Positions 36,271-45,161 of a stretch of 64,000 bases of DNA are shown piece by piece; the first letter of the stretch is position 1, and each line of letters begins with the position of its first letter. Origin of the DNA: an uncultured delta proteobacterium (GTDB lineage Bacteria; Desulfobacterota; Binatia; UBA9968); NCBI GenBank assembly GCA_963840855.1, contig CAWJBB010000085.1:64001-128000 (forward strand), given 5' to 3'. The notes beneath the pieces were generated by a model. The model was not told the origin of the DNA and did not search any database. It saw nothing but the letters and a program-made list of their open reading frames with translations. The translations under genes and the position numbers were made by a program.

Positions 36271-36336
36271 AATTGAACTGATTTCTCCGTCTAACAAATC
36301 CTGTACGATTTGCCGGATGCGTCGATCAGTTCAATC
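36271..36336 (+). repeat. 66-bp four-arm element, full copy
   Basis: AATTGAACTGAT-TTCTCC-GTCTAACAAATC-CTGTAC-GATTTGCCGGAT-GCGTCG-ATCAGTTCAATC. Confidence 0.92.
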
Positions 36337-36447
36337 CTAGCGTGATTCCGGCCTTTGTATTCGACGAACGTTTATCGCCTTCCGCCGTAAATCACGCTTT
36401 TTTTATCTCTATCCGCGTGATACATAACGCTCGAAACGAGGTGCGCA

Positions 36448-37442
36448 ATGAAGAGGGCTGCGGTGCCATCAATCCTTGTTGTAGTGGTATTGCTTGCTCT
36501 TGGAGTGATAGCCGAGGCGCAGCAGCCAACGAAAATCCCGCGGATAGGGTATCTATCGCAGTTCGATCCAGCTACTGAGTCCACTCGTGCGGAGGCAATT
36601 CGGCTGGCTCTGCGCGAGCTTGGCTACATAGAAGGACAGAACATCGCCACGGAGTACCGATATGGGGAGGGGAAGCTCGATCGGTACCCTGAACTTGCGG
36701 CCGAGCTGGCGCGTCTCAAGGTTGATATCATCGTGGCAGCAGGAGCGGACACCCTGGTCCGGGCGGCCAAGAATGCGACCAATACAATTCCCATCGTTAT
36801 GGTGGGCCGTGGGAGCGATCCTGTCGAGGCAGGCTATGTGCAAAGCCTTGCCCGTCCCGGCGGCAATATCACTGGCCTTACAAACCTTGGCAGAGAACTA
36901 GGCGGGAAGCGGCTGGAGCTGCTCAAAGAAGCGGTTCCCAAAGCTGCCCGTGTCGCAGTTCTCTACGATCCGGCCACTCCAGCCAGTGTACGCGATGTGA
37001 AAGAGGTTCTCCCAGTCGCGGCGCGCGCGCTGAAGTTGACTATTCAACCTTGGGAGATACGAAGCGCGGACGATTTCGATAAGCTGTTTTCTGCGATCGG
37101 CAAGCAGCGCCCGGATGGACACTACGTGTTCAACAGCCCGCTAATCGTTCTAACCGCAAACGCATCGTGGACTTTGCCTTAAAAAGCCGGTTACCGTCGG
37201 TGCACGAGAGCAAAGAAGCTGTAGAGGCCGGTGGGCTCATGTACTACGGGGCGGACCTCGCGGACAGCTACAAGCGCGTCGCGTACTACGTCGACAGGAT
37301 TCTGAAGGGCGCCAAGCCCGCTGATTTGCCGGTCGAGCAGGCAACGAAATTTGAGTTGATGATCAATCTAGAGACGGCGAAGCAGATCGGCCTGACGATC
37401 GCGCCGGAGGTGCTGGCGCGAGCGTACCGAGTGATCAAATGA
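36448..37442 (+). CDS. COG2984-type ABC substrate-binding protein, frameshifted near 37155
   Basis: [52 protein letters not shown] in ORF 37167..37442. Confidence 0.85.
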
Positions 37443-37459
37443 CCAAGCGGCGATGCTAG

Positions 37460-37525
37460 GATTGAATTGAATTCTCCATCGACTCAATCCTGTGAGATTT
37501 GTCCGTTGCGTCGTTCAGTTCAATC
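37460..37525 (+). repeat. 66-bp four-arm element, full copy
   Basis: GATTGAATTGAA-TTCTCC-ATCGACTCAATC-CTGTGA-GATTTGTCCGTT-GCGTCG-TTCAGTTCAATC. Confidence 0.92.
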
Positions 37526-37689
37526 CTGCGGGAACTTTGCGATGGTCTGGCCGCGATAAGCGGCCGTTCGTTAGGGAGATAACCCGCCGCCCTGGCGGCT
37601 TTTGTCGGGAAACGAAACGTTGACAAATTGGGGTAGCTGGTGGATATTGCAGCCGATTTGGATTTCATTGTCGAGGCCGTCGCCGGAGA

Positions 37690-37741
37690 TGAGCCGACCG
37701 GCCTTTGTCGCTGCCTATGGCGGCTCACCTAATAGTTAGGC
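37690..37741 (+). other. Partial attC-like site
   Basis: TGAGCCG...CGGCTCA inverted pair followed by cctaata-GTTAGGC. Confidence 0.5.
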
Positions 37742-42795: not shown

Positions 42796-42954
42796 GCACG
42801 AGCTTAAAATCCAGCCCCAACCTGATTTTTTACCTCCCAGAGCAGGGAGCAGAGAAAAACGACCTCCACAGAGGCCCTATAAACGACGATCTCGCTTTGA
42901 CCCATACCTTGGGTACCCCCCAAAACAGCCGTTTCACCAGGAGGTCTCCCCGCC

Positions 42955-43710
42955 ATGATGCTTGATCAAGTCAGAAACCTTTCCCACCAGATGCGCCTGT
43001 TTGGCATCCATGAAGCCTGCGAACGGCAAGCCCAGATCGCTTTGTCCCAGCAGCTCCATCCCCTGGAGTTTTTACGCTTGCTGCTCGAAGATGAACTGTT
43101 GTCGCGCAAAGACCGAACCGCCAAGGCGCTGGTGACCAAGGCCCGCTTTCGGTTCCGCGCCGATCTGGAAGACTTAGATTTAGCGTTCCACAAGGATCTG
43201 ACCAAAGCCAAGATCAAAGAACTCTGCGAGCTCGGCTTCCTCCATAACCTGGAGAATCTTTTGATTTTAGGTAAAACCGGTTTGGGAAAGACTCATCTAG
43301 CGATAGCCTTGGGAAAACGGCTGTGCCAGGAAGGTCATCCCACGCAATTCTTGCCAGTCAACTTCCTGTTCGAGGAAATCCAAGCTGCCAGGGCCGCCGG
43401 CCGTTACCTCAACTACATCCGTAGTCTCATCAAGGCCAAGGTTTTGATCCTCGATGACCTGGGGTTAAGAAACTATACCCACGAGGAAGCCACTTCCCTG
43501 ATGGACATCCTCGAAGAGCGCTACCGCAAGGCTCCCCTCATCGTTACTTCCCAGGTTGAGCCTCAGGGATGGCTCAAACTGTTTGAAGATCCGGTGATCG
43601 CCGAGGCCATCGTGGATCGGCTGATTCATCCATCTCAGAAAATCACCTTGAAAGGAGAGAAGTCCTATAGAGAAAAACTCACAGAGAAAAAATCAGGATT
43701 GAAAAACTAG
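42955..43710 (+). CDS. istB: IS21 helper ATPase
   Basis: Walker A GKTGLGKT, LILDDLG, AIVDRL. Confidence 0.95.
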   Translation: MMLDQVRNLSHQMRLFGIHEACERQAQIALSQQLHPLEFLRLLLEDELLSRKDRTAKALVTKARFRFRADLEDLDLAFHKDLTKAKIKELCELGFLHNLENLLILGKTGLGKTHLAIALGKRLCQEGHPTQFLPVNFLFEEIQAARAAGRYLNYIRSLIKAKVLILDDLGLRNYTHEEATSLMDILEERYRKAPLIVTSQVEPQGWLKLFEDPVIAEAIVDRLIHPSQKITLKGEKSYREKLTEKKSGLKN

Positions 43711-44802
43711 GGAGGCTTATTGTAGACAGTCAAGATAACTTCGTCGCTTCGCTCCGCTGAATTGGGTGGTCCCCTTCGTTGAAATCGGGTGGGTCCCTTC
43801 AGTGAAATCGAACAGAAAGTCCCTCGGATAGGGTATTTATCGCCAAATGATCCTATTAGCGACTCCTCGCGCTCCGAGCCGATTCGGCTGGCTCTGCGCC
43901 AGTTGGGCTATATAGAAGGACAGAACATCGCCTTTGAGTACCGATATGCGGAAGGGAAAGTCGATCGCTTCCCTGAGCTTGCAGCGGAGCTGGTTCGTCT
44001 CAAGGTTAATGTCATCGTGGTGGGAGGAGGGACCAGGATGGTCCGAGCGGCCAAGAATGCGACCAAGACGATTCCCATCGTTATGGTGGGCGCTGGGGTC
44101 GATCCAGTCGAGGCAGGCTTCGTTGAAAGCCTTGCCCGTCCCGGCGGCAACGTCACCGGCCTTACAACCCTTTCCAGAGAGCTAGGCGGTAAGCGGCTCG
44201 AGCTGCTCAAAGAAGCCGTTCCCAAAGTGGCCCGTGTCGCGGTTCTCTACGACGCGACCAGTCCGGGCATTGCACTCGACATGAAAGAGGTTCTCCAAGT
44301 CGCGGCGCGTGCGCTGGGGTTGACTCTTCAGCCTTGGGAGGTACGCCGTGCAGACGATTTCGAGAAGGTATTCGCTGCGCTGAGTAAGGAGCGCCCGGAT
44401 GGACTCTATATGGCCGCGGGCCGGCTAATGAGTGAAAATCAAAAACGGATCGTCGGCTTTGCGTTAAAGAACCGGTTACCGTCGACGTACCCGTACGTAG
44501 AAGCTGTAGATGTCGGTGGGCTCATGTACTACGGAGCGGACATCGCGGACAGCTACCGGCGCGTCGCATATTATGTAGACAAAATTCTGAAGGGAGCCAA
44601 GCCCGCCGACCTGCCGGTGGAGCAGCCGACGAAGTTTGAGCTGGTGATCAATCTCAAAACCGCCAAGCAGATTGGCCTCACGATTTCGCCGAATCTGCTC
44701 GCGAGGGCGGATCGGGTGATTCGGTGAAAACAGGTAAAAGCACTGGACATCAATTCGTCGACGGGTCCCCGGATTCGCTCAGACGTTAACCCTTGACCCT
44801 CA

Positions 44803-44868
44803 GATTGAACTGAATTCGCCATCTAACAAATCCTCTGAGATTTGACCGTTGCGTCGTTCAGTTCAATC
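44803..44868 (+). repeat. 66-bp four-arm element, full copy
   Basis: GATTGAACTGAA-TTCGCC-ATCTAACAAATC-CTCTGA-GATTTGACCGTT-GCGTCG-TTCAGTTCAATC. Confidence 0.92.
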
Positions 44869-44978
44869 CTGAGCCGAAATTAGCCCTTTCCCCCTCGACA
44901 AATCCGGTTTCCCTTCTGCCGTAAATAATCGTTTCCGCAATTACCGCCTGCGTGATAGCATCCGTAACGAGGTGCGCA

Positions 44979-45161
44979 ATGAAGAAAGCTGCGCTGCCAT
45001 CAATCCTTATTGCAGTGGTGTTACTTGCTCTTGGAGTGATAGCCGAAGCGCAGCAGACCGGGAAAGTCCCGCGGATTGGTTATTTAACGGGTGCCACGCC
45101 TGACGGGCAATCGGCCCGCATCGAAGCATTCCGGCAGGGCCTGCGCGAGCTTGGGTATATA
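44979..45161 (+). pseudogene. 5' fragment of a COG2984 substrate-binding protein
   Basis: MKKAALPSIL...VPRIGYL...GLRELGYI followed by unrelated sequence. Confidence 0.85.

Follow-up and report, generated by a model that had tools for sequence, protein, structure and literature searches.

The 68-bp sequence pairs of a Binatia MAG (G000) have, in our estimation, an even chance of being back-to-back sites of an Xer-like recombinase system that exchanges cargo modules. The window analysed here is a stretch of 64,000 nucleotides (contig C85 of this genome, positions 64001-128000), and positions given without a contig are those of the window. An earlier note had described the repeat in this stretch as a 66-bp site, which turned out to be a 68-bp pair of two inversely oriented 32-bp sites, L and R, placed back to back (e.g., L at 37459-37490 and R at 37495-37526). 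Both sites have a 13-6-13 layout, with an invariant outer arm of 13 bp (GGATTGAACTGAA or its complement), an invariant 6-bp spacer (TTCTCC in L, GCGTCG in R) and a weak inner arm; judged on sequence, this layout suggests the core site of a tyrosine recombinase. The features of the window, all on the + strand, are as follows.

28114..28181, +, L+R site pair F1; L outer arm diverged, GTTAAGC core 5 nt before ATTGAAT
28183..28280, +, leader copy before the methyltransferase module (leader HMM E 1.5e-10, profile positions 3-102)
28308..29204, +, methyltransferase cargo of an R...L module (Pfam Methyltransf_25/11)
29380..29447, +, L+R site pair F2, inner-arm variant 2
29744..36063, +, cargo encoding a 1979-aa histidine kinase with 10 GAF domains and a response regulator (Pfam)
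36270..36337, +, L+R site pair F3
36342..36460, +, leader of paralog A (leader HMM E 5.5e-29)
36448..37442, +, PF04392 paralog A, frameshifted near 37167-37182 (ORFs 36448-37182 and 37167-37442)
37459..37526, +, L+R site pair F4 (32-bp L site, 4 bp, 32-bp R site)
37527..40898, +, three-gene cargo: binding-protein-like, acyl-CoA dehydrogenase-like, alpha/beta hydrolase
40899..40931, +, R-only site, unique inner-arm variant common to C69:64110
40932..41050, +, leader of paralog B (leader HMM E 6.8e-28)
41037..44727, +, PF04392 paralog B, IS21-interrupted (parts 41037-41124 and 43818-44727)
41125..43817, +, IS21-family element inside paralog B (istA 41251-42795, istB 42955-43710)
44802..44869, +, L+R site pair F5; GTTAACC 12 nt before L-arm ATTGAAC
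44871..45161, +, leader and 5' fragment of PF04392 paralog D (ATG 44979; leader match 44871-44991)
47125..47156, +, L-only site, 5 nt after a GTTAACT core
51311..51342, +, R-only site
53041..53091, +, R site with spacer and inner arm of an L site, without L outer arm
55625..55675, +, R site with partial L site
56396..56427, +, L-only site, 5 nt after a GTTAGCG core
63287..63451, +, 3' fragment of a PF04392 paralog
63477..63508, +, L-only site

Information profiles of 62 L and 52 R sites from G000, and of 96 L and 108 R sites from other genomes and metagenomes, delimited a near-invariant part of 19 nt that comprises the outer arm and the spacer. The conserved positions of the inner arm are those matching the reverse complement of the outer arm, namely C at position 3 and AATCC in L, and GATT..C.G in R. 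The match between the two arms reaches 9 of 13 positions in L, 7-8 of 13 in recombinase-linked L sites and 6 of 13 in R, and this weak R inner arm counts against a model of two-arm recombination sites. At up to three mismatches, the 19-mer was found as 53 R and 62 L sites in G000, for an estimated chance expectation of about 1.4 in 14.2 Mb of both strands. These are pattern matches, nhmmer profiles of the two hands having been abandoned, which cross-matched because the hands share an arm. By arrangement, G000 has 34 pairs, exactly 68 nt long in 23 cases, as well as 34 L-only and 22 R-only sites. The inner-arm C was kept in 32 of the 34 L-only sites and an AATCC-like end in 21, and half sites are discrete units. 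Within the family, sites occur in 37 of 61 genomes and the R site in 36 of 60, with a reversed-pattern control returning 0-1 per genome. The arrays are carried by contigs of 34-334 kb and are surrounded by chromosomal genes. All sites of any one locus lie on one strand, and R...L and L...R stretches alternate (13 loci), with irregularities that count against an alternation model: L-only followed by L-only 10 times, and R-only by R-only three times. An origin of the half sites in large elements of the form L, cargo, R was rejected, L-only being followed by R-only five times versus those 10.

The gene travelling with these sites encodes a tyrosine recombinase of 307 aa and is placed exactly between L and R. 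This arrangement was found twice in contig C23 of genome G050, in G055, in G018, and as a pseudogene in G000 (C93). Soil metagenomes contributed 71 recombinase-encoding loci; among the 24 examined, both arms were detected in 16, R only in five and L only in three (up to three mismatches), and six metagenome loci contain an extra 700-850 bp. The protein scored about 200 bits with the XerC and XerD models, below their cut-offs, and 65 bits with the integron integrase model. Two candidate host Xer proteins (C46:175918-176757 and C77:30082-30942) share 29-34% identity with it. The gene was found in only five of the 61 family genomes, against 37 with sites, which speaks against the model: in most genomes the sites must be served by a different enzyme, or else they are relics. 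In G000, the recombinase pseudogene and the high proportion of broken PF04392 loci (38 of 91; 17 frameshifted, 21 fragments) indicate that the arrays are probably frozen and decaying. The proposal of the earlier note that the binding protein might belong to the system itself found no support: the binding-protein gene is cargo, not machinery.

As L and R are opposite and alternate, each stretch between two sites is a module, and with the recombinase gene exactly between L and R, the modules alternate as in dif modules. The order reads R, leader, cargo, L, then L, 4 bp or recombinase, R. The L-to-R modules contain either 4 bp or the recombinase gene, sometimes with a divergent 134-aa ORF, while R-to-L modules hold cargo with its own leader, mostly orphan PF04392 genes and also kinases, methyltransferases and SRAP. 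The recombinase would bind the sites and act in trans, with cleavage and strand exchange in the 6-bp spacer; as L and R have different spacers, an L site would recombine only with another L site and an R site only with another R site. Direct repeats would excise or insert a circle made of one L-to-R and one R-to-L module (about 1.14 kb for PF04392), and double events would swap single modules between arrays. Such a mechanism would account for several observations: the arrays run in one direction and often with a 1.14-kb period, L-only and R-only sites stand free, and identical cargo occurs in different arrays.

Traces of recent exchange were identified in G000. The regions C46:104631-107782 and C75:18693-21844 are 99.3% identical, and their similarity stops immediately past the GCGTCG of the R site. 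A block of the window (37467 to 40930), extending from inside the L outer arm to the end of the R site, is 99.96% identical to C69, with different downstream neighbours; the three-gene cargo within it shows the same identity except for a 612-bp indel at 38579. The ends of this block fall within the invariant 19-mer and are weakly informative, so the crossover is placed by the C46/C75 pair only. One contig of public run X1 carries a C69-like version of the three-gene module, and the 3' 2.8 kb of the kinase and response-regulator cargo is 95% identical to C41:191830-194662. Counting against the model, no excision circle, empty site or inversion was seen; the contigs of four public runs contained only paralog noise, with many joints between paralogous copies, no clean excision product and no usable transcript ends. 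A search for circle-type junctions (R arm then L arm within 40 nt) yielded only one weak case on C75 and an internal artefact in two metagenome loci. Among same-genus genomes, no DNA match to positions 26200-29300 that could represent an orthologous empty locus was found.

What the earlier note had observed in the window was borne out. Its three starts (36448, 41037 and 44979), placed 105-110 bp past right-hand sites, are ATGs at 110, 105 and 109 bp from the ends of R 19-mers (36337, 40931 and 44869), and its three gene ends (37442, 44727 and 63451) are followed 16, 74 and 25 bp on by L 19-mers starting at 37459, 44802 and 63477. These starts and ends belong, however, to four copies of which none is intact: one is frameshifted, one is split by the IS21-family element (2.69 kb, with at least six other copies at 99-100% identity) and two are fragments. 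The ORF at 43789-44727 matches PF04392 with 150.8 bits (Pfam cut-off 25.9). A leader profile built from 23 genomic copies recovered the shared leader ahead of all three starts (36342-36460, 40932-41050 and 44871-44991), as well as the copy after the site at 28180 that heads the methyltransferase. The suggestion of cargo replacement was thus sound, the R...L frame being occupied by this methyltransferase, the GAF kinase with its response regulator, SRAP or the three-gene block. As also stated in the note, the window paralogs have no transporter neighbours (no BPD_transp_2 or ABC_tran domain in 40 ORFs between 23 and 64 kb).

The genome-wide count of COG2984 paralogs advised by the note returned 114 PF04392 matches in 91 loci. 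The PF02653 permease has 11 matches in five loci, none of which adjoins a PF04392 locus in the genome, the closest being 6.8 kb from a PF04392 pseudogene on C72; PF04392 paralogs are therefore orphans without an adjoining permease. Thirty-seven leader copies were identified, all of them in site-bearing loci, including 31 directly behind an R arm and 25 followed by the 5' part of PF04392; to these are added two cases that escaped the HMM, window paralogs B and D. The unit made of R hand, leader, PF04392 and L hand recurs across the genome, often with a period of 1135-1150 bp. Site, leader and gene thus form a real unit, and binding-protein genes are the commonest cargo of the element. The broader suggestion, that this basic amplifying unit could explain the expansion of the family, held only in part, and the condition that the note had named as refuting it came true by half. 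A site flanks 29 of the 70 full-span loci; the other 41 have none within reach. Judged by the permease genes, these do not sit in ABC operons either. Many siteless paralogs form plain tandem arrays with unrelated short spacers (12 copies on C6; also C32, C30 and C34). On a quick tree, the site-flanked paralogs do not form one clade: the label changes 14 times, at least seven of these changes being forced by well-supported branches, and 35 of 500 label shuffles did as well. With 41 of 70 loci siteless and the flanked copies scattered over the tree, the unit alone does not explain the expansion.

The pair could be read as an unusual attC, folded as single-stranded DNA and recombined by an integron integrase, the arrays being CALINs and PF04392 with its leader and site an ordinary promoter-bearing integron cassette, a scenario that we regard as quite unlikely. 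Sites of the attC type have inverse cores (RYYYAAC ... GTTRRRY) and extrahelical bases on one side; the outer cores of the pair, ATTGAAC and GTTCAAT, each agree with this consensus at six of seven positions, and its longer 5' half lies on that same side. The pair is found just 3' of an ORF and in its orientation, and its outer arms are predicted to form a 13-bp hairpin stem, as an attC would, with folding z-scores of -3.1 to -6.1 in five of six cases and -1.35 for the diverged F1 copy. G000 encodes an integron integrase (C1:45987-46880; 442 bits with TIGR02249, cut-off 265), as do 28 of the 61 family genomes above cut-off, and on contig C23 of G050, the only place where the two were seen to adjoin, 5-8 kb separate the integrase from L and R sites and the first cassette ends in a textbook attC. 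The term CALIN, as defined in PMC4889954, designates attC clusters without a nearby integrase. Genomes G000, G001, G003 and G005, however, have no sites near their integrase, and R site and integrase are unassociated across the family (19/17/13/11 genomes, n = 60, odds ratio about 0.95). The inner structure of the fold is not conserved, and the stem has no compensatory change at its two variable positions: among about 80 pairs, no covariation was detected between L and R outer arms, counting both strands (odds ratio 0.88, p 0.83 at position 9; 1.23, p 0.68 at position 13), which fits independent protein-binding arms. Unlike attC, the L and R sequences are near-invariant across genera. Discrete L-only and R-only sites, which a G/TT crossover cannot make, equal or outnumber the pairs; recombinase elements carry a gene inside the attC "loop"; and the C46/C75 block, the one informative pair, diverges 5 nt upstream of G/TT.

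More weight, although still on the unlikely side, is given to a recombinase-less, MITE-like relic of an inverted-repeat recombinase element of about 1.06 kb, once inserted beside PF04392. Arrays would then have grown by homologous recombination or unequal crossing-over in the roughly 190 bp of site and leader, with no site-specific module exchange today. Consistent with this, both 19-nt ends and the ATCC-TGT joint of the pair recur in the recombinase element, which also occupies the same positions between PF04392 genes, non-autonomous copies far exceed recombinase genes in number, and many site copies have decayed through internal deletions or lost arms. The siteless tandem arrays show that PF04392 also expands without sites, and the tree shows its coding regions intermingled, a pattern expected from gene conversion. 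Yet unrelated cargo occupies the R...L frame, free-standing half sites retain complete 32-bp units, and what different genera have in common, invariant spacers and selectively conserved positions in the inner arms, implies that the sites are still under selection. No target-site duplication flanks the pairs or the recombinase elements (five genomic and 34 metagenomic), and the enzyme is a tyrosine recombinase rather than a DDE transposase, both at odds with a MITE or IS with terminal inverted repeats. Very improbable, finally, are expression signals, with the L hairpin protecting or terminating the upstream mRNA in a REP-like manner and R with its leader acting as the operator or promoter of a regulon. 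L does lie 16-40 nt past stop codons and R ahead of a conserved leader, a hairpin is predicted, and one of the invariant blocks of the leader is CGTAAAT, about 16 nt past a GAAT, an arrangement that we take to resemble ECF-type promoters. Against this, no T-run follows the hairpin, the leaders show no sigma-70 consensus promoter (seven promoter-like sites in 19.5 kb, all outside leaders, versus 10.5 in shuffles), and the sites are confined to about 13 co-oriented clusters, flank the recombinase gene in many genomes and border unrelated genes and pseudogenes in identical form. REP/REPIN sequences with a RAYT were discarded, as by coordinates all 11 PF01797 matches fall outside the site arrays and the repeats are clustered and co-oriented, not dispersed.

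The closest likeness of the proposed module-exchange system is with the dif modules (pdif, XerC/XerD) of Acinetobacter Rep_3 plasmids. As described in PMC13141974, these have short asymmetric sites with two arms and a 6-bp spacer, whose orientation alternates and thereby defines two alternating module types, some ORF-less; the excisable unit is two adjacent modules between directly repeated sites, and recombining partners need matching spacers, the last two points being ones that the Binatia system would share. In contrast, Binatia sites are 13-6-13 rather than 11-6-11 and fall into two classes with different invariant spacers, which should block inversion, and none was seen. The dedicated Xer-like recombinase gene is itself a module, and the arrays are one-directional, mixed with integron attC sites, and located on chromosomal contigs rather than on Rep_3/OrfX plasmids. 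With integrons and CALINs, the arrays share a single direction, mostly single-gene units, imperfect palindromes of about 70 bp, diverse accessory cargo, an integrase in G000 and beside the array in G050, and canonical attC abutting L sites. They differ from these by sites that are conserved in sequence, lack covariation and are split into two independent halves, by an Xer-like enzyme, by PF04392 cargo with its own leader and by the absence of a family-wide association with IntI. In XerS/difSL and XerH/difH, as here, one Xer-type recombinase gene lies beside the site that it serves; the Binatia gene is, however, bracketed by two different sites, dozens more of which bound cargo, and no role in chromosome dimer resolution is implied.

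Somewhat short of even is the likelihood of the full proposition, in which a chromosomal cassette system with non-interchangeable L and R sites, driven by an Xer-like recombinase of its own, is layered over integron arrays, docks 5 nt behind attC cores and shuttles modules with their own promoters, chiefly orphan binding-protein genes, within genera of Binatia and from one to another. Detailed knowledge of cassette-type shuffling is limited to integrons and to the dif modules on plasmids of one genus, and among the papers listed in literature searches nothing specific on this Binatia system or on Xer-type cassette arrays was found. If true, the proposition would give soil bacteria a second route to integron-like shuffling of genes, one that works on double-stranded DNA, and would bring dif-module logic into the chromosome of an unrelated, uncultured soil phylum. 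Such a system would have a recombinase gene of its own, and a single orientation would be enforced by its two site classes. The Binatia arrays are also physically intertwined with integron cassettes. Canonical attCs (GCCTAAC...GTTAGCC and the like) beside L sites are separate structures, and in about 14 cases L sites lie a fixed 5 nt behind GTTRRRY-like attC cores, which the module model leaves unexplained. Three home-made attC detectors (inverse cores with folding energy or an L-box stem) gave no gain over controls, with 15 hits in the window versus 12-16 in shuffles and seven in the arrays (2.33 per 100 kb versus 2.61 elsewhere), so that canonical attCs in the arrays are known as individual textbook examples only. 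A caution follows for other cassette arrays, whose palindromic repeats need not be attC sites. An IS91-like element (integrase and Y2 transposase) was rejected as the mobiliser: on C35 it is itself inserted in an R site (GCGTC^GTTC), GTTC presumably being its target preference, and it looks like a parasite of the site.

Module exchange, if true, would also offer a concrete route for the copying and exchange of part of a very large orphan binding-protein family. Families of this kind are familiar from Bug/TctC, in which dozens of periplasmic binding-protein paralogs have no adjacent transporter genes, and the 91 PF04392 loci, compared with five for the PF02653 permease, are alike in this respect. 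In contrast to Bug/TctC, about 40% of the PF04392 copies have a common leader in front and are enclosed by the proposed recombination sites.

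The arrangement that the earlier note had described from the window proved to be real and non-random in the 7.10-Mb assembly of the genome under study (93 contigs, designated by C numbers; 56% GC), and its repeating unit of site, leader and binding-protein gene had been correctly named. Three start codons of the COG2984 (PF04392) binding-protein family lie 110, 105 and 109 bp 3' of the 19-mer of a right-hand (R) site, and three paralog ends lie 16, 74 and 25 bp 5' of the 19-mer of a left-hand (L) site. The profile of the shared leader matches behind the R hands at window positions 36337, 40931 and 44869, with a truncated match ahead of a methyltransferase gene, behind the R hand at 28181. 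None of the 40 ORFs scanned between 23 and 64 kb of the window encodes a permease or an ABC ATPase. All PF04392 copies in the window are damaged:

Window 36448-37442: paralog A, frameshifted
Window 41037-44727: paralog B, split by a 2.69-kb IS21-family element at 41125-43817
Window 44979 to about 45161: paralog D, a 5' stump
Window 63287-63451: a PF04392 3' stump

The IS21-family element in paralog B encodes IstA (514 aa) and IstB (251 aa), carries 23-bp tandem terminal repeats at 41131-41206, and was recently active, since at least six further copies with 99-100% identity occur on C85, C2, C58, C41, C39 and C40. The module behind the truncated paralog D is filled by a 396-aa ORF (45414-46604) without a Pfam or NCBIfam match. 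Before the first site, an amine oxidase gene (26263-27958) occupies two overlapping frames (26263-27213 and 27101-27958), the result of a frameshift or an assembly error.

What had been taken for a single 66-bp element consists of two back-to-back sites that occur as often apart as paired. A pattern scan of the genome (up to three mismatches) returned 53 R and 62 L 19-mers, against about 1.4 expected by chance; these fall into some 13 loci, share a single strand within each locus and are often spaced by 1135-1150 bp. The hands form 34 pairs, 34 L-only and 22 R-only occurrences. Of the 34 pairs, 23 measure exactly 68 nt (32 + 4 + 32). L-only copies, counted from their start, reach an ATCC after about 32 nt, keeping the conserved C in 32 of 34 cases and the AATCC-like end in 21; the ends of the half-sites are thus discrete. 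Information profiles, built from 62 L and 52 R copies in this genome and from 96 and 108 copies elsewhere, revealed in each hand a near-invariant 13-nt outer arm, then a 6-nt stretch, also near-invariant, that reads TTCTCC in L and GCGTCG in R, and a weakly conserved last 13 nt in which conservation falls on the positions that mirror the outer arm. This 13-6-13 layout, present in each hand, is that of a tyrosine-recombinase core site, and a pair consists of two of them placed back to back, 4 bp apart and in opposite directions. A hairpin predicted from the outer arms of a pair gave z-scores of -3.1 to -6.1 in five of six folds and -1.35 for the diverged copy at 28113. The two stem positions that vary showed no covariation between L and R among about 80 pairs, counted on both strands (odds ratio 0.88, p 0.83, and odds ratio 1.23, p 0.68), and since these positions change independently, pairing between the outer arms does not seem to be selected.

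Along the arrays the sites alternate R, L, R, L, the R-to-L interval holding cargo and the L-to-R interval either 4 bp or a recombinase gene. The PF04392 protein is cargo, and not a part of the system as the earlier note had proposed. Other cargo found in several arrays includes a GAF histidine kinase with its response regulator, a MASE1 kinase, SOS-response-associated peptidases (SRAP), methyltransferases, a diacylglycerol kinase and a three-gene block. The different invariant spacers of L and R would forbid exchange of L with R, which fits the strictly one-directional arrays. The three-gene block (window 37467 to 40930) has a counterpart on C69 that, except for a 612-bp indel, is 99.96% identical. 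Identity begins after one mismatch within the L outer arm and stops at the final base of the R site, whose unusual inner arm is common to both; the following module starts with a PF04392 leader in the window and is an O-methyltransferase module in C69.

Several features of individual modules deserve mention. The 612 bp are deleted at window 38579 relative to C69, so that the first and second genes of the block (ORFs 37813-38541 and 38548-39513, versus 347 and 394 aa in C69) are truncated or fused. The histidine kinase at window 29744-35683 (1979 aa, response regulator next) has 10 GAF domains and internal repeats of about 1 kb that are 60-80% identical, and a 971-aa version with four GAF domains occupies the same site frame on C41. 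SRAP genes or fragments are found at window 47264-47974 and 50295-50564 and on C27, C50 and C75, several directly behind an L site; one on C75 forms an in-frame fusion with the 5' half of a PF04392 gene. An IS91-like element (C35:32235-34650, locus L003), with a 280-aa integrase bearing a SAM_4 domain and a Y2 transposase, is inserted in an R site, where it separates GCGTC from GTTC; IS91-like fragments adjoin sites on C65, C75 and C77, and public run X1 shows the IS91-like junction sequence as a loose end at window 29436. The C61 array region is bordered by an ORF of 895 aa (C61:159301-161988; L014:13301-15988) that carries a TcA-type TcB-binding domain (PF18276).

A candidate enzyme is found between the sites themselves. 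In G050, a relative of the same genus, L and R hands exactly bracket a tyrosine recombinase gene of 307 aa, twice on contig C23. Its product is Xer-like, with scores of about 200 bits against the XerC and XerD models (under their cut-offs) versus 65 bits against the integron integrase model. The gene was detected in five of 61 family genomes (E 1e-50 or better) and on 71 soil-metagenome contigs. Of 24 such contigs checked for arms (up to three mismatches), 16 have L before and R after the gene, three have L only and five R only, the latter mostly with too little upstream DNA. The metagenome element occupies the place of the 4-bp centre of a pair in the window; it is preceded by a PF04392 stop codon or a canonical attC's GTTRRRY-like core, and very often followed by the PF04392 leader. 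In six of the 24 contigs, L and the recombinase gene are separated by an extra 700-850 bp containing a divergent ORF of 134 aa that belongs to no known family. No target-site duplication was seen around the recombinase elements.

According to PMC13141974, C and D modules alternate on Acinetobacter plasmids between inversely oriented 11-6-11 dif sites, some modules have no ORF, adjacent pairs are excisable and partners need like spacers. The L/R arrays follow the same alternating-module logic. Unlike in dif modules, L and R bear different invariant spacers and the recombinase is itself a module. We give about an even chance to the best-supported reading, in which a dif-module-like modular recombination system of Xer type is interleaved with integron cassettes; a limited literature search turned up no account of one. 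The system is probably inactive in the genome under study, because its recombinase ortholog, directly behind an L hand (C93:38565-37648), is a pseudogene with stop codons and, of the 91 PF04392 loci, 17 are frameshifted and 21 are fragments, so that 38 are broken. We consider it less likely that the sites are purely a relic, a MITE-like repeat shuffled by homologous recombination.

The modules and integrons do meet: G050 C23 carries a complete integron start (integrase 478 bits to TIGR02249, GTTAGGC core, rhodanese cassette and textbook attC), with L-R recombinase elements further along the contig. Canonical attCs directly adjoin L sites: a GTTRRRY-like core stands exactly 5 nt before the L-arm ATTGAAC in about 14 cases (window 28114, 47125 and 56396; C27, C41, C50 and C61; relatives G050 and G055; two metagenome contigs), and ahead of several of these L sites stands a textbook attC (GCCTAAC...GTTAGCC, for instance). 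Possible reasons are targeting of attC cores by the recombinase element, or insertion of integron cassettes beside L sites. It is rather unlikely, though, that the sites are atypical attCs served by the integron integrase. C46 and C75 share a 3.15-kb MASE1-kinase block at 99.3% identity, which extends through the GCGTCG of the block's R site; immediately beyond, the outer arms differ at several positions. This pair, the sole one informative on junction position, places the junction at the spacer and not at the G/TT cut point of integron integrases. No L or R sites were found near the integrase of the genome under study (C1, 442 bits) or its integrase fragment (C21), and likewise in G001, G003 and G005. 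Among 60 family genomes, including the unpublished G010 and G016, the R site occurs in 36 (34 of 58 without both) and an integrase match (E 1e-40) in 32, independently of each other (both 19, R only 17, integrase only 13, neither 11; odds ratio about 0.95). Home-made attC detectors did no better on the arrays than on controls. Beside the C1 integrase (C1:42291-46880, L056), three or four more tyrosine recombinase genes stand in a row, which we take to resemble a recombinase-in-trio element; no cassette array adjoins it.

A role of the sites as an expression signal is quite improbable. All 37 leader copies in the genome lie within site-bearing loci, 31 beginning directly after the R arm, and they contain invariant blocks. 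No sigma-70 consensus promoter was found in the leaders; their GAAT ... CGTAAAT, spaced by about 16 nt, resembles ECF-type promoters and is a candidate for one. Contigs of public metatranscriptomes yielded no transcript starts.

In the genome-wide count that the earlier note had proposed, 114 six-frame PF04392 matches merged into 91 loci, 70 with the whole domain (53 in one piece) and 21 fragments. Among the 70, 16 have R upstream and L downstream, eight L only, five R only and 41 neither; the unit invoked to explain expansion of the family exists and covers only about two fifths of it. Decay is equal with sites (22 intact, 7 frameshifted, 9 fragments) and without (31, 10 and 12). When the 53 one-piece copies were placed in a quick maximum-likelihood tree, flanked and unflanked copies were interleaved: the label needs 14 changes, well-supported branches force at least seven of them, and 35 of 500 label shuffles were as good. 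On several occasions the association between site and gene was gained or lost. PF04392 is a true orphan family here: PF02653, the permease family that matches it, has only five loci in the genome, none adjoining a PF04392 locus. A signal peptide can be read in the PF04392 protein sequences, and the NCBIfam model that fits them best is that of a tryptophan-binding protein (119 bits, far under the cut-off of 390). Unflanked copies often stand in plain tandem arrays of up to 12 genes (12 in C6:143-14967, others in C32, C30 and C34), whose short spacers have no relation to site or leader and hold a GC-rich GGCGTGAGG-type repeat.
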